64,000 nucleotides of DNA, taken from contig UQYF01000005.1 in assembly GCA_900545175.1 (NCBI GenBank), positions 29,890 to 93,889 of the forward strand. Reading direction: 5' to 3'. This DNA is from an uncultured Eubacteriales bacterium. GTDB lineage: Bacteria; Bacillota; Clostridia; Lachnospirales; Lachnospiraceae. How positions within the stretch are numbered: the first letter of the stretch is position 1; every line of letters begins with the position of its first letter. Of this stretch, positions 5,888 to 59,348 are shown in pieces. The position numbers and the translations under genes were made by a program. Under the pieces are notes generated by a model, which was not told the DNA's origin, ran no database searches, and worked only from the letters and a program-made list of their open reading frames with translations.

Positions 5888-6898
5888 ATGAAGGTTGTTG
5901 TATGTCAGGGAGAGACAACCGGCTATCCGTCAAGGGATGAGCTGGTTGCTCTCTGGAAGGAAGAGATAGGTAAGATACCTGAGGTTGATGAGCTTGTAGT
6001 AAGAGAAAATTTTGATTATGAAAAAGTTGATGAGATTGCGGACGATGCAGATGCACTCATCGGTGTATGGATAAAGGATGGATTTTATACGGATGAATTT
6101 TTTGACAGGCATAAAAAGCTTAAATATATCGCAACAACAGCTCATGGCTTTGGAAAGATTGATGCGGAGTGTGCAAAAAGACATGGAGTCACTTTTACTA
6201 ATACTATATATGGAAACGTAACCATAGCACAGTATGCGATGGCACTTCTTATGAATATATGCCACAGGATTGACGCATTAAACGACATGTACCGGGAGGC
6301 ATGTGATGAACATAAGAATGTGATGATGGGAAGGAATCTTCCAAGACAGATAAGACAGATTGAGCTGTATGAAAAGACAATAGGAATTGTAGGCTTAGGA
6401 GCTATCGGACTTTGTATGGCCCGGATGGCAGCAGGCTTTGGAATGAAGGTTATAGCATATAACCACCACAAAAAGACAGGTTCGGAATATGATTTTGTCG
6501 AGCAGGTTTCCCTTGACGAGCTGTTAAGAAGGTCGGATGTCATATCTATACATTGCCCATCAACGGATGAGACAAGAGGAATGATTGACAAGAATGTGAT
6601 TAATAAGATGAAGGACGGAGTAATCCTTATCAACACTGCAAGAGGTGATATCATAGTTGAGGATGACTTGGTGGATGCGCTGAATTCAGGAAAAGTATAT
6701 GCGGCAGGACTTGATGTTGTATGTAACGAGCCGGTTGTACAGAGAATACCGCTTATGGACTGTCCGAATGCAATCATTACACCTCATATGGCGTGGGCTC
6801 CGGCTGAGGCAAGATACAGGACAGTTAGGATAGCATCAGATAATCTAAAAAACTGGATTGAGGGTCATCCGACAAGTGTTATTAACGGAAAGGGCTGA
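5888..6898 (+). CDS. D-isomer-specific 2-hydroxyacid dehydrogenase (NAD-binding)
   Basis: RBS AAGGAGGAG; Rossmann GxGxxG motif (GIVGLGAIGLCMA); catalytic-domain similarity to the glycerate/phosphoglycerate dehydrogenase family. Confidence 0.8.
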   Translation: MKVVVCQGETTGYPSRDELVALWKEEIGKIPEVDELVVRENFDYEKVDEIADDADALIGVWIKDGFYTDEFFDRHKKLKYIATTAHGFGKIDAECAKRHGVTFTNTIYGNVTIAQYAMALLMNICHRIDALNDMYREACDEHKNVMMGRNLPRQIRQIELYEKTIGIVGLGAIGLCMARMAAGFGMKVIAYNHHKKTGSEYDFVEQVSLDELLRRSDVISIHCPSTDETRGMIDKNVINKMKDGVILINTARGDIIVEDDLVDALNSGKVYAAGLDVVCNEPVVQRIPLMDCPNAIITPHMAWAPAEARYRTVRIASDNLKNWIEGHPTSVINGKG

Positions 6899-9446: not shown

Positions 9447-9599
9447 AAATGCTGTGCAGGACTTAAAAATTCAGCTTGACAATTCATATGCGTTTAATTA
9501 TTATTAGTTCATAAAATAAGAGATGCGAAGCATCAATTTTTTATGAGCATGAAGCGAAAGCGGATTGCAGATATCATTGACTATATGAAAAAGCTATGA

Positions 9600-9905
9600 A
9601 GGGAAGAAGTAGATATTTTTAGGAGCCTACAGAGAGCTGCCGGGTGGTGAGAGGCGCACAGGTAACGGAATATTGAATACATCCTAGAGCATTGCACCGA
9701 AAGAAAGATAATTTTTTTAGTAGGCTGTGACGGCAGCACCCGTTATAGTGCAGAGGTATCGATTAAAAGTGTGAAGGATTACTTCTGAAACAGCTTTTGG
9801 TCTGTACTTGGTGAGGCACCGGATGTGAGTTCGGTGTGAAGTAAGGTGGTAACACGTTTATATACGTCCTTACAGTAGTAATCGCTGCTGTAAGGATTTT
9901 TTTAT
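9600..9905 (+). ncRNA. T-box leader riboswitch (likely tyrosine-specific) controlling tyrS
   Basis: Stem-I like region with AGAGAG/GGTGAGAG; candidate specifier loop GAA-UAC-A; T-box-like AAGGTGGTAACACG; terminator TCCTTACAG...CTGTAAGGA plus T7 at about 9868-9905. Confidence 0.55.
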
Positions 9906-9963: not shown

Positions 9964-11184
9964 ATGGGTATTTACGAAGAGCTTAAGGCAAGAGGTCTTA
10001 TAGCACAGGTAACAAATGAAGAAGAAATCAGCAAGATGATCAATGAAGGAAAGGCTACCTTCTATATAGGATTTGACTGTACGGCTGATTCTCTTACAGC
10101 AGGACATTTTATGGCGCTTACACTTATGAAACGTCTTCAGATGGCAGGAAATAAGCCGATCGCATTAATCGGCGGCGGAACAACCATGATAGGTGACCCT
10201 TCCGGAAGAACCGATATGCGTAAGATGCTTACGAAGGAAGATATTGAGCATAATGCTGAATGTTTCAAGAGACAGATGGAGAGATTTATTGACTTTAGTG
10301 ATGGAAAAGCTCTTATGGTAAACAATGCCGACTGGCTTTTAAATCTCAACTATGTTGAACTGCTTCGTGAAGTCGGAGCATGCTTTAGTGTCAACAATAT
10401 GCTTCGTGCAGAGTGCTATAAGCAGAGAATGGAGAAGGGACTCTCATTCCTTGAGTTTAACTACATGATAATGCAGAGCTATGACTTCTATATGTTATAC
10501 CAGAAATACGGCTGTAACATGGAGTTCGGCGGAGATGACCAGTGGAGCAACATGCTCGGAGGAACAGAGCTTATCCGCCGTAAGCTAGGTAAGGATGCAC
10601 ATGCCATGACAATAACGCTTCTCACCGATTCTAACGGTAAGAAGATGGGAAAGACTGCCGGAAACGCTGTATGGCTTGACCCTGATAAGACTTCACCTTA
10701 CGATTTCTTCCAGTATTGGAGAAATGTTGACGATGCAGATGTAATGAAGTGCATTAAGATGCTCACATTTATTCCGCTTGAGGAGATTGAAAGGATGGAG
10801 AGCTGGGAAGGCAGCCAATTAAATGAAGCTAAGATGATTCTCGCATACGAGCTTACCAAGCTTGTTCACGGCGAGGAGGAAGCTGATAAGGCTAAGGCAG
10901 GCGCACTTGCAATATTCGGTGGTTCAGGAGACTCATCGAACATGCCTACAGTTGAGATTGAGGAAGCTGATTTCAGGGATGGCTTTGTTGATATACAGAC
11001 ACTTCTTGTAAAGGCAGGTCTTTGTCAGTCACGCGGCGATGCAAGAAGAAATGTTGAGCAGGGCGGCGTTACAGCCAATGATGTGAAGGCAACGCTTGAC
11101 ACAAAGTTTGCCAAGGCTGATTTCGGTGATGGAATCGTTGTAAGAAGAGGAAAGAAGAGCTTTAAGAAGGCAGTTCTCAAGTAG
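9964..11184 (+). CDS. tyrS: Tyrosyl-tRNA synthetase
   Basis: HIGH-type motif region (TADSLTAGHFMAL), KMGKT (KMSKS motif), C-terminal S4 domain; preceded by the T-box. Confidence 0.9.
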   Translation: MGIYEELKARGLIAQVTNEEEISKMINEGKATFYIGFDCTADSLTAGHFMALTLMKRLQMAGNKPIALIGGGTTMIGDPSGRTDMRKMLTKEDIEHNAECFKRQMERFIDFSDGKALMVNNADWLLNLNYVELLREVGACFSVNNMLRAECYKQRMEKGLSFLEFNYMIMQSYDFYMLYQKYGCNMEFGGDDQWSNMLGGTELIRRKLGKDAHAMTITLLTDSNGKKMGKTAGNAVWLDPDKTSPYDFFQYWRNVDDADVMKCIKMLTFIPLEEIERMESWEGSQLNEAKMILAYELTKLVHGEEEADKAKAGALAIFGGSGDSSNMPTVEIEEADFRDGFVDIQTLLVKAGLCQSRGDARRNVEQGGVTANDVKATLDTKFAKADFGDGIVVRRGKKSFKKAVLK

Positions 11185-11211
11185 AGGGAGCGTTCATAGG
11201 ATCTTAAACAG

Positions 11212-11254
11212 CAGACCGTAAGAGAGAAATTTGTTCTTACGGTCTGTTTTCTAT
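11212..11254 (+). terminator. Intrinsic terminator after tyrS
   Basis: CAGACCGTAAGAG...CTTACGGTCTG followed by TTTTCTATTTT. Confidence 0.7.
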
Positions 11255-11455
11255 TTTATGGTTCCGGTGTCAAAACATGCTAATCATTTTATAAAATAAT
11301 TTATTATTTTTTAAATAGTATATTGCAATATATAATAGCTTGTGATATGATACAATAAATTCATCAGAGAAGAACTGAAAAGTGCTTTATTCTATCGGAT
11401 GGTTTTTTGATGAATTGACAGGTCGGATATTATAATTAAGGAAGGGAGTGTTTAC

Positions 11456-11764
11456 ATGAATACGCAGATGAAGAAGGGTGTTTTGGAGCTGTGTGTTCTC
11501 TCGATGTTAAATCGCAGTGACAAGTACGGATATGAGCTTACGGAGAGCTTGTCTGAGGAGATGTCGATAGCGCCTGGGACATTGTATCTTATACTTAAAA
11601 GGCTCAAGGATGACGATTGTGTCGAGACATATTTAGTGGAGTCGGAGTCAGGTCCGGCGAGGAAATATTATCACCTGACAGATAAGGGAATACAGAGTCT
11701 GGAACAACAGAAAAACGACTGGCAGCAATTTATAAAGATTGTCGGCAAGTTCATAGGCGAGTAG
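11456..11764 (+). CDS. PadR-family transcriptional regulator
   Basis: Winged-helix PadR signature (LELCVLSMLNRSDKYGYEL...GTLYLILKRLK). Confidence 0.85.
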   Translation: MNTQMKKGVLELCVLSMLNRSDKYGYELTESLSEEMSIAPGTLYLILKRLKDDDCVETYLVESESGPARKYYHLTDKGIQSLEQQKNDWQQFIKIVGKFIGE

Positions 11765-11782
11765 TAGAGGGAGGAAAGATTT

Positions 11783-13219
11783 ATGACAAGAGCAGAATAT
11801 ATGGAAGAGCTTGCGAAGGCACTTAAGGATTATGACGAGGATTTTGCATTAGATATTATCGGGGATTACAGGAGACATTTCGATGAGGCGGCTGCTGACG
11901 GAAGAAGTGAGGAGTCAGTATGTGAGGAGTTAGGAAGCGTAGAGGATTTTATAAGGGATATACCGGAGGAGTTTAAAAGAAACAGTGAGCCAGATGAGAA
12001 GGAGCAGGACGATGCTGAATTTTCTGAGAAAGCCGGAGAAGAGGCACATTCAACAGGAAAGAATGATGATATCACGGACGATTTTGAAAAGCTTGCAAGT
12101 GACATAGGCAAGCTTGTAAACGAAGCCGGAAGGATGGCAGGCAAGGCCGGTGTAGCCGCCGGAAAAGCTGCAATCAAGGCGGCAAAAAGTGCTGATTCAG
12201 CTATAAGTAAGCTAAGCGAAGTTATATCTGACAAGATAAATGAAGCGATGGAAGATAAGACATCAGACATTTTTGATTCGGACGAGGGCAGTGATGATGA
12301 AGGTGGCAAAGCTGCCAAGGATATAGCAGGTGGCATGAACCTTGACAAGGATGACATTTTTGAAGAAAAGACAGATGACAATACTCTCATAGTATGCAGC
12401 TATACCGGCATCAGAGGAATCAAGATGAGTGTAGTAGAACCACATGTGGAACTTACACAGAGTGATACGGATGCAGTGACAATCACATTGTCAAGACCTC
12501 TTACTAAGAAGGAAAAGATGTATATGAGTCCTGTTGTGACTGTGGAGGACGGAATACTTAAGGTTAAACAGGAGAACAAAAGCAGGGCGTTCTCATTCCT
12601 CAATAATATTGGAAATGCACCTCTCATATATTATGTAAATATTCCTGCAAAATTTGAAAAAATCAATATTTCTACGGTCAGCGGCGGCATAATTATTCAG
12701 AGTCAGATAGTAACAGACGGCTGTAAGCTCTCAACAGTAAGTGGCTCGATAAAGACAGAATATGAAATACAAGCTGACAAAATAAAGCTTAATACGGTGA
12801 GTGGCTCTATAAAAACAGGTATGCTGTTATATGCAAAGAAACAGGAGTTGAGTTCTGTGAGCGGAAGCATAAAAGCTGTGGCAGGGCAGGACAGCTTCAG
12901 TTTAGATACTGTCAGCGGATCGGTCAAACTTGCTATAGCTGCACCCTGCAGTGGAAATATAAATACGGTTTCCGGTTCAATAGTGATTAATCTCCTAGCT
13001 GACATAGGAATTGACATAAAGAGTTCAGGGATGAGCGGATCCATGAAGCTGATGACAGATAAGCATGTTGATTGGAATAATGGTGAGAATGAAAAGAATG
13101 TTCATTTCGGATTCTCAAAATCAGACAGACATGCGATATTCGGGGATGGCTTAGCAAGAGTGACAACAGGCTCCGTAAGCGGTTCGGTGAAGGTATACGA
13201 TTTCGGAAAAATGGAATAG
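11783..13219 (+). CDS. DUF1700-like N-terminus, a long acidic/lysine-rich disordered linker, and a C-terminal DUF4097 beta-helix repeat domain (LiaG-like)
   Basis: N-terminal MTRAEYMEELAKALKDYDEDF typical of proteins encoded after padR; about eight tandem TVSGSIK-type repeats near the C-terminus; no TM segment visible. Confidence 0.7.
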   Translation: MTRAEYMEELAKALKDYDEDFALDIIGDYRRHFDEAAADGRSEESVCEELGSVEDFIRDIPEEFKRNSEPDEKEQDDAEFSEKAGEEAHSTGKNDDITDDFEKLASDIGKLVNEAGRMAGKAGVAAGKAAIKAAKSADSAISKLSEVISDKINEAMEDKTSDIFDSDEGSDDEGGKAAKDIAGGMNLDKDDIFEEKTDDNTLIVCSYTGIRGIKMSVVEPHVELTQSDTDAVTITLSRPLTKKEKMYMSPVVTVEDGILKVKQENKSRAFSFLNNIGNAPLIYYVNIPAKFEKINISTVSGGIIIQSQIVTDGCKLSTVSGSIKTEYEIQADKIKLNTVSGSIKTGMLLYAKKQELSSVSGSIKAVAGQDSFSLDTVSGSVKLAIAAPCSGNINTVSGSIVINLLADIGIDIKSSGMSGSMKLMTDKHVDWNNGENEKNVHFGFSKSDRHAIFGDGLARVTTGSVSGSVKVYDFGKME

Positions 13220-19567: not shown

Positions 19568-19705
19568 CAAAAAAAGTAAAAAGCAGTGGCGGATTGTGAA
19601 GATACTTAGGAATGTGTCGGACAAATACTATAAAGTTTAAATTGCATAGTGTTGTGTATAATGATAGAATTAGCTGAAAGATTTTATGAAAATGGAGATT
19701 GCGTT

Positions 19706-25043: not shown

Positions 25044-25088
25044 AAGAGGGTCACAAGCACTGAAAAGTGTTTGAGATCCTCTTTTTAA
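25044..25088 (+). terminator. Probable intrinsic terminator (imperfect stem plus T5)
   Basis: AGAGGGTCACAAGCAC...GTGTTTGAGATCCTCT followed by TTTTT. Confidence 0.45.
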
Positions 25089-25537
25089 TAATGTGAAAAC
25101 AGCCTCAACCAAGCATCTGATATAAGATTATTTTATCGGTTTAGGTAAAGCGGATTGCGAATGTCCGCTTTACAGAGCATCAGTATAACAAAAATAAAAA
25201 TGCATTTGCATTTATAGAGCATATGTTCGGCAATAGCCAAGATGGTAAAAATATACATATAAAAATATAAAATGATTGCTTGAAACACATGATAACTCAT
25301 GAATTGCCGGAAAGACTTGAAGTATGCCGAATATGAAGTATAATAAATTTGATACACATGAAAAATGAAGCCGCAGTAAAACTTCTAAAGAAAGATGTGA
25401 GCATTTTTATAAGAGATTTTTGCTGCACACAGAGCAGGTTTGAAAGAGAAACTTTCAAACTATGTATTGGTGGCAGTACGGTGAGCGGTGCATGCAGTAT
25501 GCAGAGGGATAAAAAATGAAAGCGAGGGAGAAATATT

Positions 25538-32435: not shown

Positions 32436-33494
32436 ATGGGAATTATCAGAGAAGTGTTCGGACATGACAGCCATGGAGCTACAGTATATTCATACACTGT
32501 GACCAATGACCATGGAACCAGAATAAGACTTATTGAGATGGGAGCAGCATTGCAGTCACTTGAGGTTGCCGACAGGGATGGCAATTTTGCGGATGTTGTG
32601 CTTGGATATGACAATGTCGCCCAGTATGAGACCGCTAACGGTGAGAATTTTGGAGTTGTAGTAGGACGTAACGCCAACCGCATAAAGGACGCACGCTTTA
32701 TGATAAAAGGAAAAGAATACAAGCTTGCGAAAAATAGCGGAGAGAATAATCTTCACAGCGGTCCGGATGGGTACAGCTCAAGAAGATGGGAAAGTGAGAT
32801 TGCTGATAACGAGAGAGGACAAGCGGTAAGATTTTCTCTTGTAAGTCCGGACGGAGACCAGGGAATGCCTGGAGAACTTCATGTCTCTGTCACATATATT
32901 CTCACTGACGATGACAGCGTGATTCTTGAATATGAGGGTGTTGCGGGTGATGACACTATAGTGAATCTTACCAATCATTCTTACTTTAATCTTGCAGGAC
33001 ATGCTTCAGGTACAGTATATGACCAGAAGATGTGGCTTGCGGCAAGTGAGTTCACTCCTTCGGATGCAAGCCTTATCCCGACAGGTGAGTACAGAAGTGT
33101 CAAGGGAACTCCAATGGATTTTACAGAGCCTAAGGCTATCGGGGAAGATATAAATGCTGATTATGAACCTCTTATTCTTGCAGGAGGCTATGATCATAAT
33201 TTTGTCTTAGATAACAAGGGCGAAGTGGAGCTTGCAGGAAGTCTTTATGATGAGAAGAGCGGAAGATTTATGGAAGTGTTCACACAGATGCCGGGTATTC
33301 AGATATATACAGGCAATTTCCTAAGTGGAAAATCAAGAGGCAAGGATGACTGCTATTATGAGAAGCGTGACGGAGTCTGCTTTGAGACACAGTTTTTCCC
33401 GGATGCGGTAAATAACACGGCATTTGAATCACCGGTAGTTCAGGCAGGCGTGCCGTTTGATTTCGTTACAGCATATAGATTTTCCGTAAAATAA
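32436..33494 (+). CDS. galM: Aldose 1-epimerase (galactose mutarotase)
   Basis: Mutarotase motifs (NLHSGP...GYSSRRW, FFPDA, catalytic His/Glu context). Confidence 0.8.
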   Translation: MGIIREVFGHDSHGATVYSYTVTNDHGTRIRLIEMGAALQSLEVADRDGNFADVVLGYDNVAQYETANGENFGVVVGRNANRIKDARFMIKGKEYKLAKNSGENNLHSGPDGYSSRRWESEIADNERGQAVRFSLVSPDGDQGMPGELHVSVTYILTDDDSVILEYEGVAGDDTIVNLTNHSYFNLAGHASGTVYDQKMWLAASEFTPSDASLIPTGEYRSVKGTPMDFTEPKAIGEDINADYEPLILAGGYDHNFVLDNKGEVELAGSLYDEKSGRFMEVFTQMPGIQIYTGNFLSGKSRGKDDCYYEKRDGVCFETQFFPDAVNNTAFESPVVQAGVPFDFVTAYRFSVK

Positions 33495-33654
33495 TTTATA
33501 AAATAGAGATGCCAAGCATCGTTTTTATGAGTGGGAAGCGAAAGCGGATTGTGAATATCGTTTACAATAGTGTTGCTGTAAATGACATTGAAAAGATTAA
33601 TAATATTTAATTTTCTGTTATATATGCAATAAAATGAACTGCGATGTGGAGATT

Positions 33655-34344
33655 ATGATGAATAGTAAGCTTGAAAGCATTAATAAAGATGAAGCATTCC
33701 GCTATCTGGGTTATGGTTTATCAATTCCTGACAGACAGACATTAGAGCTTGCGGACGACTGTGAGAAAAAGCTGCTCAGTGTTATAAATGCAAGATACAC
33801 ATACCGATATTTTGAAATAGACAAAAATAACACTTCCAAAGAGTGTGTGGCTCTTAATGGTACTTCACTCAGCTTATGCGGCAGTTCGATATCCGGGCAT
33901 CTTGAAGGGTGTGAGGGAGTTGTACTTTTTGCAGTTACGCTTTCTGATGGGGTTGACAGGCTTATAAGGCAGCTGTCAGTAAAGAGCATGTCGGCAGCTG
34001 TTGTTGCGGACAGCTTAGCATCTGCGGCAGTCGAGCAGGTGTGCGATATCGCAGAGCGTGAAATAATGAAAGAGTTTGAAGGCAGATATACTACGTGGCG
34101 TTTCAGTCCGGGGTATGGTGATTTTCCATTGGAGACGCAGCACCTTTTTCTTGATGTGCTTTCAGCTCAAAAAAGAATCGGAGTTAATATTACAGGGGGT
34201 GGACTTATGACCCCCTGTAAGTCGGTTACGGCAGTTATAGGTATTTCAAATAGCGAGGTCGAGAGAAAAAGACGCGGCTGCAGTGTCTGTCGTATGAAAG
34301 ACACATGCAGATTCAGGAAGAAAGGTGAACACTGTGGATTTTAA
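33655..34344 (+). CDS. Methionine synthase activation (reactivation, AdoMet-binding) domain protein, stand-alone
   Basis: ~230 aa encoded immediately upstream of, and overlapping, an 809-aa MetH that lacks the activation domain; GGAGA RBS. Confidence 0.6.
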   Translation: MMNSKLESINKDEAFRYLGYGLSIPDRQTLELADDCEKKLLSVINARYTYRYFEIDKNNTSKECVALNGTSLSLCGSSISGHLEGCEGVVLFAVTLSDGVDRLIRQLSVKSMSAAVVADSLASAAVEQVCDIAEREIMKEFEGRYTTWRFSPGYGDFPLETQHLFLDVLSAQKRIGVNITGGGLMTPCKSVTAVIGISNSEVERKRRGCSVCRMKDTCRFRKKGEHCGF

Positions 34345-36754
34345 GACATTACTTGAAAAGAAGAACAAAGCTGATAAGAAATATATATTGTTAGATGGAG
34401 CCATGGGAACGATGCTTCAGGCATCGGGGCTTAAGCTTGGGCAGATACCGGAAGTGTTATCATTTACCAATGAGGAGCTTCTTATCGGAATACACAGACA
34501 GTATGTCAAGAGCGGTTCGGATATAATATACACGAATACCTTCGGCGGTAACAGATATAAGCTTGAAGGCTGCGGTTATACAGTTGAGCAGGTTATTAAA
34601 AAAGGAATAGAGAATGCGAGAAAAGCATGTGAGGGAACTGACTGCATAGTAGCTCTAGACTTAGGACCTATAGGCAGGCTGGTTGAGCCTACAGGAGATC
34701 TCAAGTTCGAGGAAGCATATGATATATATAAAGAACAGGTTATAGCCGGAAAAGATGCGGATATTATCATATTCGAGACTATGACTGATTTGCTGGAGCT
34801 TAAGGCGGCTGTGCTTGCGGCTAAGGAGAATACAGAGCTTCCGATTATCTGTACAATGACATTTGAGCAGAATATGAGAACCTTCACCGGCTGTCAGGTA
34901 TCAGCAATGGCACTTACAATGGAGGGACTAGGAGTCGATGCGCTTGGAGTTAACTGTTCGCTTGGACCTGATGAGCTCTATCCTGTGGTTGAGGAGCTTG
35001 GAAAATATACGAGACTTCCGCTTGTAGTAAAGCCGAATGCCGGACTTCCTGACCCTGTGACGAATGAATACAATGTAAGCCCAAAGGAATTTGCATCTAA
35101 AATGGCAAAAATGGCACAGATAGGTGCTACGATAATGGGTGGCTGCTGTGGAACAAGCCCTGAATATATCGCAGAGCTCAAAAAAGCACTCGATAATGCA
35201 GAATTTATAAGAAAAGAGAATGTTATTCCTTCGGCAGTGTGCTCCGCAAGCAGTACGGTTGTGATTAACCAGCCAAGAATAATCGGCGAGAGAATCAATC
35301 CTACAGGCAAGAAGCTGTTCAAGCAGGCGCTCAAGGAGCATAATCTTGACTATATCATGAATCAGGCATTAGAGCAGATAGATGGCGGTGCAGAGATACT
35401 CGATGTGAATGTCGGACTTCCTGAGATAGATGAAAAGAGCATGATGGTCGATGCAATAAGAGCCATTCAATCGGTATGTGATGTACCTCTTCAGATTGAC
35501 AGTACGATACCGGAAGTCTTAGAGGCAGGACTCAGGGTATACAGCGGAAAGCCTATAGTGAATTCGGTGAATGGTGAGGAGAACTCTCTTAATAATGTAC
35601 TTCCGCTTGTAAAAAAATACGGAGCATGTGTTGTCGGACTCACACTTGATGAGAATGGAATACCTAAGACAGCTCATGAGCGTGTCGCCATAGCAAAGAA
35701 GATTCTTGACAGGGCACTCTTACTTGGCATACCTAAGGAGAATGTATTTATCGACTGTCTTACTCTTACAGCCTCGGCAGAGCAGGACGGAGTGATGGAA
35801 ACCTTGAATGCACTTCATACAGTACACTATGAGCTTGGACTTAATACAGTGCTCGGAGTTTCCAACATATCCTTCGGACTTCCGTACAGAGAGCTTGTAA
35901 ACCAGAATTTCCTTGCGATGGCTCTTACATATGGACTGACACTTCCGATTATCAATCCTAACATTGTATCTATGACAGGAGCAGTGCGCGCTTACAGACT
36001 TCTCACCGGAATAGACAGAAATTCAATGGATTATATACAGGCATATAATGGCTATGTTCCGGCAAAAGCAGGCAAGGCAGAAAGCAGTGCAAAAAATGCA
36101 GCAGGTACTGAGAATATTCAAGGCTCTGAGAAGGGTACACTTGCATACGCAGTAGAGAATGGGCTGAAAAATGATGGTGCAAGACTTACGGAGCAGATGC
36201 TTGAACATATGGAACCGTTAGAGATAATTAATGGAACACTTATACCGGCACTTGACAGAATCGGCAAGAATTTTGAGAAGGGCAAAGTGTTCCTTCCACA
36301 GCTTATTCTTGCCGCAGAAGTGACTCAGGCTTCATTTGAGGTTATAAAAAAGAAGCTTGCAGCAGATAACAAGACACCTGTAAGCAAGGGCAAGATTGTG
36401 ATGGCTACGGTCAAGGGCGATGTACACGATATCGGAAAGAATATCGTGAAGGTCATTCTGGAAAATTACGGCTACACGGTTATTGACCTTGGCAAGGATG
36501 TTGACTACATGACAGTCGTGAATGCGGCAATAGAGCACAAGGCAAAGCTTGTCGGCCTGTCGGCACTTATGACGACAACTCTTGTGAGCATGGAAAACAC
36601 TATCAAGCTGCTTAGGGAAAATAATGTTGATTGTAAGGTTGTCGTTGGCGGTGCAGTCCTGACCCCGGAATATGCCAAGCAGATTGGTGCCGATTACTAT
36701 GCAAAGGATGCCATGGACACTGTTGCGGCAGCCAGAGAAGTCTTTGGTGAATAA
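34325..36754 (+). CDS. metH: Cobalamin-dependent methionine synthase core (Hcy-methyltransferase + pterin-binding + B12-binding domains)
   Basis: LLDGAMGTMLQ (Hcy domain), GGCCGTSPE, B12-binding DxHxxG (GDVHDIGKNIV); GTG start overlaps the upstream gene. Confidence 0.9.
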   Translation: MNTVDFKTLLEKKNKADKKYILLDGAMGTMLQASGLKLGQIPEVLSFTNEELLIGIHRQYVKSGSDIIYTNTFGGNRYKLEGCGYTVEQVIKKGIENARKACEGTDCIVALDLGPIGRLVEPTGDLKFEEAYDIYKEQVIAGKDADIIIFETMTDLLELKAAVLAAKENTELPIICTMTFEQNMRTFTGCQVSAMALTMEGLGVDALGVNCSLGPDELYPVVEELGKYTRLPLVVKPNAGLPDPVTNEYNVSPKEFASKMAKMAQIGATIMGGCCGTSPEYIAELKKALDNAEFIRKENVIPSAVCSASSTVVINQPRIIGERINPTGKKLFKQALKEHNLDYIMNQALEQIDGGAEILDVNVGLPEIDEKSMMVDAIRAIQSVCDVPLQIDSTIPEVLEAGLRVYSGKPIVNSVNGEENSLNNVLPLVKKYGACVVGLTLDENGIPKTAHERVAIAKKILDRALLLGIPKENVFIDCLTLTASAEQDGVMETLNALHTVHYELGLNTVLGVSNISFGLPYRELVNQNFLAMALTYGLTLPIINPNIVSMTGAVRAYRLLTGIDRNSMDYIQAYNGYVPAKAGKAESSAKNAAGTENIQGSEKGTLAYAVENGLKNDGARLTEQMLEHMEPLEIINGTLIPALDRIGKNFEKGKVFLPQLILAAEVTQASFEVIKKKLAADNKTPVSKGKIVMATVKGDVHDIGKNIVKVILENYGYTVIDLGKDVDYMTVVNAAIEHKAKLVGLSALMTTTLVSMENTIKLLRENNVDCKVVVGGAVLTPEYAKQIGADYYAKDAMDTVAAAREVFGE

Positions 36755-58949: not shown

Positions 58950-59320
58950 GTCTACCAGTTGGCTGAATAATCGCGGCTGCATATGTCGAAAGACCGCAGG
59001 TGAGGAAAGTCCGGGCTTCATAGGGCAGGATGCCGGATAACGTCCGGTGGAGGTGACTCTAAGACCAGTGCAACAGAAATATACCGCCACAGGCGTAATG
59101 CCGAGGCTCCGCAAGGACGTGGTAAGGGCGGAAGGGCAGTGTAAGAGACTACCGCCTGTCTGGTAACAGACAGGGCACATGTAAACTCCATCCGAAGCAA
59201 GACCGAATAAGAGACAGTGACGTGGCCCGCCAGTCTCAGGTTGGTCGCTTGAACCTGTTGGCAACAGCAGGTCTAGATAGATGATTATTCACGACATAAC
59301 CCGGCTTACAGGCTGACTGG
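58950..59320 (+). ncRNA. rnpB: RNase P RNA (bacterial type B)
   Basis: GAGGAAAGTCCGGGCTTCATAGGGCAGGATGCCGGATAACGTCCGG (P4 5' strand) ... AGGGCGGAAGGGCAG ... ACATAACCCGGCTTACAGG (P4 3' strand); P1 pairing of CCAGTTGGCTG with CAGGCTGACTGG. Confidence 0.85.
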
Positions 59321-59348
59321 TGGTTATTTACCAATAGGAGATTTTTCG

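Follow-up and report, generated by a model that had tools for sequence, protein, structure and literature searches.

A short repeat between galM and metH

The window, by which we mean the whole 64,000-nucleotide stretch of DNA that was analysed, carries on its forward strand a galM gene (aldose 1-epimerase, 32436..33494; Pfam PF01263 (Aldose_epim), E 3.8e-80), which is followed on the same strand by a MetH activation-domain gene and metH (33634..36754; Pfam PF02965, PF02574, PF00809 and PF02310), the former likely starting at 33658. The 160 nt that separate galM from the MetH activation-domain gene contain a short element at 33497..33569 (+ strand), called copy 2 in the following. The initial annotation had described 33503-33560 as a second, homologous copy of an element at 9519-9580, and had named pairwise alignment as the way to check this. 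Local alignment of 33497-33569 with 9510-9584 gave 61 identical positions in 72 aligned columns (85%), with two small gaps and a score of 45, compared with a median of 9 when every other 200-nt slice of the window was aligned on either strand, 18 for the best unrelated slice, and a mean of 9.0 (sd 1.6, maximum 18) in 2000 shuffles. The two stretches are thus homologous far above background. They also share the exact 17-mer GAAGCGAAAGCGGATTG, whose two occurrences in the window lie at 9551-9567 and 33535-33551, and both contain the hairpin followed by a T-run (GATGC-NAA-GCATC, then T's) that had been read as a terminator pattern. Against a model of the whole family, copy 2 scores an E-value of about 2e-11 (nhmmer), and its sequence is unchanged across 13 metagenome contigs of the same species.

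From 5′ to 3′, copy 2 consists of hairpin A (33495..33531), with the GC core GATGC-CAA-GCATC at 33508-33520, an outer A/U stem and a T-run at 33522-33526; of the linker ATGAGTGGG and the invariant 17-mer (33527..33551), which contains GCGAAAGC at 33538-33545; and of a right part, TGAATATCGTTTAC (33552..33565), the counterpart of ...GCGAATATCATTGAC in other copies of the variant that we call type II, in which the 3′ arm of a further hairpin has decayed. The TTTACA-N10-TGTAAA inverted repeat that had been noted directly downstream does exist (33561..33582, + strand; arms at 33561-33566 and 33577-33582), but it does not belong to the element, because neither copy 1 nor any other family member has it. 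Chance alone should produce an AT-rich repeat with 6-bp arms of this kind about once in a few hundred bases.

Anatomy and subfamilies

Comparison of the subfamilies resolves a full unit of about 70-75 nt with five parts in order. Hairpin A, which is small and has GC-GAA-GC at its centre (a GCGAAGC cap), is followed by a short linker with ATGAGCARG at its end, by GCGAAAGC (or GCGAAGC in variants one base shorter, GCGAA(A)GC), by hairpin B, AAGCGGA(T)-TGCGAAT-(A)TCCGCTT, which overlaps the third part and can be written as AAGCGGA-TTGCGAAT-TCCGCTT, and by a terminal T(T/G)AC. Hairpin B is intact in type I and type III copies and has lost its 3′ arm in type II copies, which include window copies 1 and 2. 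In numbers, 13 of 36 non-redundant copies have an intact hairpin B, as does 25145-25173 of the window, GCGAAAGC or GCGAAGC lies in the core of 31 of the 36, and GC[N]AAGC within hairpin A of nine; invariance inside the core is partly a matter of ascertainment because the search patterns fixed 16-22 core bases. We also considered that type II might be a hairpin split by an inserted element and rejected this, as orphan right halves were not found.

The three predicted hairpins of the family differ in their evolutionary signatures. The stem of hairpin A differs compensatorily among subfamilies (GAUGC/GCAUC, GCUGC/GCAGC, UCGC/GCGA), with 87% of cells paired and two pairs showing double changes. 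Applied to 37 copies, RNAalifold prefers a weak alternative hairpin, GCAR..GC-GAAA-GC..UUGC (hairpin C), with no covariation. Both hairpin B and hairpin C are conserved in stem sequence, with zero double changes and a covariation term of -0.09.

Copies in the window and in other genomes

Copy 1 (9505..9584, + strand), likewise of type II, has its hairpin A core at 9522-9534 and a T-run at 9537-9542, followed by ATGAGCATG at 9543-9551 and the 17-mer. It lies directly 3′ of the tyrS leader promoter (TTGACA-17-TATTAT, 9476..9504; 11/12 matches, kept in five species) and directly 5′ of the tyrS T-box leader (9587..9874; Rfam RF00230, 110.4 bits), that is, between the −10 box and stem I, so that the tyrS leader probably starts inside the repeat. 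A third copy, found with a profile built from the known ones (nhmmer E about 1e-8), is the right module alone (25145..25173, + strand): a perfect 10-bp hairpin B, GTAAAGCGGA-TTGCGAATG-TCCGCTTTAC, with TTGCGAATG as its loop and a fold of -16.6 kcal/mol (z -5.3). It sits about 60 nt past the strong terminator at 25044-25083, within a 630-nt intergenic region. Finally, a relic, AGCAGTGGCGGATTGTGAAGATAC (19582..19605, + strand), between genes for a PLD-domain protein and a beta-galactosidase, has as its orthologue an intact type II copy in contigs of 'Firmicutes bacterium CAG:882' (L136, 19813-19860). All four copies lie on the + strand, which is the G-rich strand (GC skew +0.20) and also that of nearly all genes in the window.

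Outside the window, an exact-pattern scan of GTDB species genomes identified five sites in four Eubacterium/Eubacteriales MAGs, and a pattern scan of metagenome contigs returned 109 matching stretches. Three GC-rich environmental matches were discarded as chance, and all true ones come from human-gut assemblies. After removal of redundancy, and with diverged nhmmer copies included, about 30 distinct sites remain, all of them intergenic, and their contexts are unrelated: copies precede the tyrS T-box, the metH operon and a beta-galactosidase gene, directly adjoin the feoA ribosome-binding site on its 5′ side, separate the rplQ stop codon from the rplQ terminator, flank trpF on either side within a trp operon, and follow hybrid histidine-kinase paralogs. 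Four copies lie in the 64 kb window, one in 21 kb of L136 and none in 42 kb of L139/L141, and any per-genome copy number is extrapolated from the 64 kb alone. The TyrRS encoded in the window is 97% identical to that of CAG:882 (L136/L137) and about 83% identical to that of Agathobacter, which places the host among the Lachnospiraceae. The element is a strand-oriented repeat of about 45-75 nt, scattered over intergenic regions of human-gut Lachnospiraceae (CAG:882, Agathobacter and Eubacterium MAGs).

Two further observations concern the contigs that carry the repeat. In L010, L011 and L013, the rplQ terminator stem (GGAAGCGAATGTTGC...GCAGCATTCGCTTT) resembles an internally deleted repeat (CAGGAAGCGAA-TGT...) and may be a second, rearranged copy, and L053, which contains two repeat copies, also encodes a RAGATH-18 RNA (RF03064, 67.8 bits; 6615-6687).

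We found no match to the element in IMG/VR. Several GenBank matches are human faecal virome records labelled 'UNVERIFIED: Bacteriophage sp.' (L123-L127: MT835545, MT835578, MT835791, MT836195 and MT835651), whose gene content (sugar-binding proteins, flavodoxin, MatE and MFS transporters) marks them as bacterial chromosomal fragments rather than phage genomes. A phage origin was rejected on these two grounds, and a plasmid source because the sole plasmid matches were chance ones in Agrobacterium. At the Rfam gathering threshold, a search of the window and 10 loci recovered above threshold the T-box and the bacterial class A RNase P RNA of the window (RF00010, 290.7 bits; 58955-59324) and RAGATH-18 in L053, with no match to the repeat; relaxing the threshold to E up to 10 for four representative copies gave nothing plausible, the weak matches (leu/phe leader, Clostridiales-1, plastid motifs) being attributable to chance. 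Literature searches by sequence string and by topic found no account of the element, and we regard it as a previously undescribed repeat.

Empty sites in sister species

Gene order around copy 2 (Polysacc_synt-galM-MetHact-metH) is kept in sister species, whose MetH activation-domain proteins share 73-82% identity, and in three of them (L128, L132, L134) the galM stop codon is 30-40 nt from the next start, with the element absent. A fourth species (L130, MAG CM_BacCAG1528.41) has an unrelated 170-nt galM/MetH spacer (2331-2500) which includes a TTGAC-containing stretch; the junction has therefore expanded independently in two lineages. The tyrS locus tells the same story. Five species have the promoter CTTGACAA-N17-TATWAT in common, with the T-box about 20 nt later, and in L136/L137 (CAG:882 contigs), L138, L139 and L141 the promoter runs directly into the T-box; the window species alone has an extra 64-70 nt, which is copy 1, exactly between the −10 box and the T-box. 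Being absent from orthologous sites with the same gene order, copies 1 and 2 are lineage-specific insertions. The relic at 19582-19605 is the reverse case, since here it is CAG:882 that holds the intact copy. From the empty sites and the relic, the decisive evidence here, we conclude that copies come and go as species diverge and that they do not act as conserved regulators of the adjacent genes. Neither a target-site duplication nor terminal inverted repeats were seen at the one well-resolved empty site, that of tyrS.

Termination of galM and regulation of metH

The initial annotation had gone further and suggested that a factor-independent galM terminator is joined here to a regulatory element controlling the metH operon. 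The hairpin and T-run do fit a terminator pattern, on both strands, as in intrinsic terminators, a promoter-like site (GTTACA-16-TAAAAT) ends at 33492, and an Rfam search found no riboswitch upstream of metH. However, the hairpin A core of copy 2, whose stem has only five GC-containing pairs, reaches -5.0 kcal/mol (-9.4 kcal/mol when extended), compared with -20.7 kcal/mol for the T-box terminator (9866-9897) and -23.1 kcal/mol for the terminator at 25044-25083, both of them real terminators of the window. Unlike in intrinsic terminators, the extended hairpin A (-9 to -14 kcal/mol) consumes the U-run itself by pairing it in the outer A/U stem, and subfamilies other than that of the window have no T-run. 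The same terminator-like module is moreover found in the leader of an essential gene: in copy 1 it lies about 10-30 nt 3′ of the predicted tyrS transcription start, and efficient termination at that point would be expected to abolish the T-box-controlled transcript. The placing of copy 1 between promoter and T-box argues against an efficient terminator. Added to this, the family is spread over about 30 unrelated sites, the element is missing from the short galM-metH junction of sister species, and the inverted repeat is private to copy 2, all of which speaks against a coupling of galM termination to the metH operon, so that we regard the proposed model as highly improbable. Copy 2 is at most a weak terminator or stability element, acquired by accident.

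Other transcription signals fared no better. With TTGAC of the right end taken as a −35 box, no copy has a −10 box at proper spacing, and a promoter in or at the end of the element was rejected; by-eye comparison with motifs for sigma-54, SigH, SigD, the RAT antiterminator, the tRNA T-arm and group II intron domain V gave no fit.

Orientation, breakpoints and a possible route of spread

All but one of the distinct sites lie on the G-rich strand, and every site with callable neighbours has at least one co-oriented gene. The sole discordant site (the L014 group, on the C-rich strand) follows its downstream gene and not the GC skew; on one such case, a replication-linked bias for the G-rich strand is inseparable from a transcription-linked one. 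No transposase that could partner the repeat turned up, and no tnpA or tnpB gene adjoins any of its copies. A tblastn search with IS200 TnpA and E. coli RAYT as approximate queries, covering 1.3 Mb of fetched loci, returned one IS200/IS605 tnpA, in L018, and no RAYT. The L018 element (10880-12600) is of IS200/IS605 type, with a tnpA-like ORF at about 10960-11358, a 367-aa tnpB-like ORF at 11383-12486 and typical end hairpins; derivation of the repeat from this insertion sequence, the one compared, was rejected, the local alignment score falling within the range of shuffles.

In two comparisons, homology between loci ends inside the element. Three hybrid histidine-kinase paralogs (L096, L038, L022) share a near-identical 190-nt 3′ end together with the left half of the element and then diverge, a pattern suggestive of gene conversion or ectopic recombination with its end point in the repeat, and L076 and L053 have the same kind of breakpoint. 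We also considered site-specific cleavage as the source of these breakpoints and set it aside in favour of the simpler explanation, recombination between type I and type II copies.

Taken together, it is probable that 33497-33569 is a recently inserted member of a dispersed repeat family and not a regulator of metH. Copy 2 would then be carried passively in the galM-metH transcript, where the most that its weak hairpin and U-run might do is to terminate transcription in part or to change the stability of the mRNA. As for how copies arise, it is tempting to speculate that a trans-acting enzyme recognises the hairpins while the lagging-strand template is single-stranded, as for REPs and the ends of IS200/IS605 elements, a route that we put forward tentatively and hold to be possible rather than probable; after insertion, copies would decay roughly neutrally. 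A more ambitious version, which we consider rather unlikely, sees the repeat as an active element or signal on single-stranded DNA, with the mini-hairpins (GCGAAGC, GCGAAAGC) and the conserved-loop hairpin B being acted on by a hairpin-specific enzyme of Lachnospiraceae, of HUH type or otherwise, that has so far gone unrecognised, or serving on the lagging-strand template as a signal for priming or recombination of the chromosome.

The strongest competitor to a passively carried repeat is a functional RNA module, taken up time and again into mRNAs, to which an RNA-binding protein or RNase would bind or which would act as a 5′ or 3′ stabiliser, with hairpin A and the GNRA-capped hairpin C acting in the transcript. 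Such a module would fit the sense orientation to a neighbouring gene, which holds at every callable site including the one on the C-rich strand, and the covariation of hairpin A; several pairs are G-U and form on this strand only, the three substitutions of copy 2 in hairpin C all keep wobble pairing, and several copies end 5-15 nt 5′ of a Shine-Dalgarno sequence. Nevertheless, the contexts have no common function, sister species are empty at both window sites and one orthologous copy has decayed, hairpins B and C are conserved in their stems without covarying, and Rfam gave no match. We therefore think that an RNA module has only a modest chance of being the main explanation, while the covariation of hairpin A and the frequent placing just 5′ of ribosome-binding sites leave room for a role at the RNA level.

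Two further readings shift the function to the DNA strand or to a peptide. A DNA-level signal on the leading-strand sequence (a recombination hotspot, a mini-hairpin priming or primosome site, or a protein-binding palindrome) would agree with the strand bias, which goes with GC skew at all but one site, and with the ending of homology between paralogous or orthologous loci inside the element. The repeat core also contains AGCGG, which we take to be the Chi sequence of Bacillus subtilis, but any 5-mer recurs by chance in each kilobase, breakpoints of this kind are expected from ectopic recombination between any dispersed repeats, and most copies of the window lineage no longer have the palindrome. 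Even with GCGAAGC and GCGAAAGC known as mini-hairpins at single-strand initiation sites (PMC13037366), we consider a signal of this sort very unlikely. Least credible of all, and close to dismissed, is a family of small genes in which the conserved ATG would open reading frames for MS(R/K)KRKRIAN(I/V)... peptides of 14-32 residues. Most copies do have an ATG or GTG, a copy with a 6-nt deletion keeps an in-frame ATG, and some third-position changes are synonymous (ATC/ATT/ATA, GAC/GAT, GTC CGC to GTT CGA). However, Shine-Dalgarno sequences are not consistently present, the C-termini are unrelated flanking sequence, at least nine non-redundant copies have TAG or TGA at codon 4-5 (ATGAGCAAGTAGCG..., ATGAGCAGGCAGTGA), a one-base GAAA/GAA indel shifts the frame, and some copies (L082, L014, window 25145) lack a start codon; the small ORF was rejected for its early stops, frame-shifting indel, unrelated C-termini and inconsistent Shine-Dalgarno sequence.

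Implications

Small dispersed repeats of this kind reshape operons, as seen here with one copy that separates a conserved promoter from the tyrS T-box and a second that splits the tight galM-metH junction. They seed ectopic recombination, with two cases here of homology that ends in the element, and in metagenome-assembled genomes they make terminators, small ORFs and regulatory RNAs harder to annotate correctly; at the locus studied, recognising the repeat removes a false lead on metH regulation. Once catalogued, a family in the abundant gut Lachnospiraceae would be an aid to strain typing and to the reading of intergenic variation. If a dedicated mobilising enzyme exists, REP/RAYT-type biology would extend to Firmicutes, and an active element or signal on single-stranded DNA, if real, would be the first REP-like system described for Lachnospiraceae, a major group of gut Firmicutes.

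Comparison with known systems

We sort the repeat among the short interspersed intergenic repeats, several classes of which resemble it in part. BOX, RUP and SPRITE elements of Streptococcus pneumoniae, Correia elements of Neisseria and MITEs are likewise modular, noncoding, intergenic and transcribed with their neighbours, and their presence or absence differs among close relatives. However, they measure 100-160 nt or more, compared with about 45-75 nt for the repeat, and have no sequence similarity to it; unlike MITEs, the repeat has no inverted termini in its consensus and no target duplication at the empty tyrS site.

Likenesses at the level of DNA hairpins are found in two other systems. 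GCGAAGC and GCGAAAGC are classic extra-stable DNA mini-hairpins (Hirao and colleagues; PMC13037366), with GCGNAGC / GCGNNAGC as the motif definition, and the known cases are phage or plasmid single-strand origins or N4 promoters (PMC13037366). Both exact motifs are present in the repeat, where variants with a one-base indel switch between them. The known cases are, in contrast, not chromosomal dispersed repeats, and in the repeat the mini-hairpin is a predicted property and a lead. The ends of IS200/IS605 elements and PATEs rely for their function on DNA hairpins on one strand, have a strong orientation bias relative to replication, and are not expected to show terminal inverted repeats or target duplications. 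IS200/IS605 ends also adjoin short conserved tetra- or pentanucleotides, to which T(T/G)AC would correspond in the repeat. Different from these ends, the repeat has no similarity to the L018 copy, no adjacent tnpA or tnpB, and is a single unit rather than a pair of left and right ends.

The other parallel is with the REP/BIME sequences of Enterobacteria and Pseudomonas, which are mobilised by RAYTs. The repeat differs from them in having no GTAG-type 5′ tetranucleotide, in occurring as single or tandem same-orientation copies instead of inverted pairs (REPINs/BIMEs) or clusters, in its extra upstream mini-hairpin module and in its Firmicute host, and no RAYT gene was found in the sampled 1.3 Mb with the approximate queries. 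A REP-type palindrome is found as hairpin B in 13 of 36 copies and at 25145-25173, and is lost in copy 2 itself. With REP/BIME sequences, the family shares a short (20-40 nt core), sequence-conserved imperfect palindrome, an extragenic and co-transcribed location inside operons or at gene ends, dispersed copies with subfamilies and decayed relics, and insertion polymorphism.
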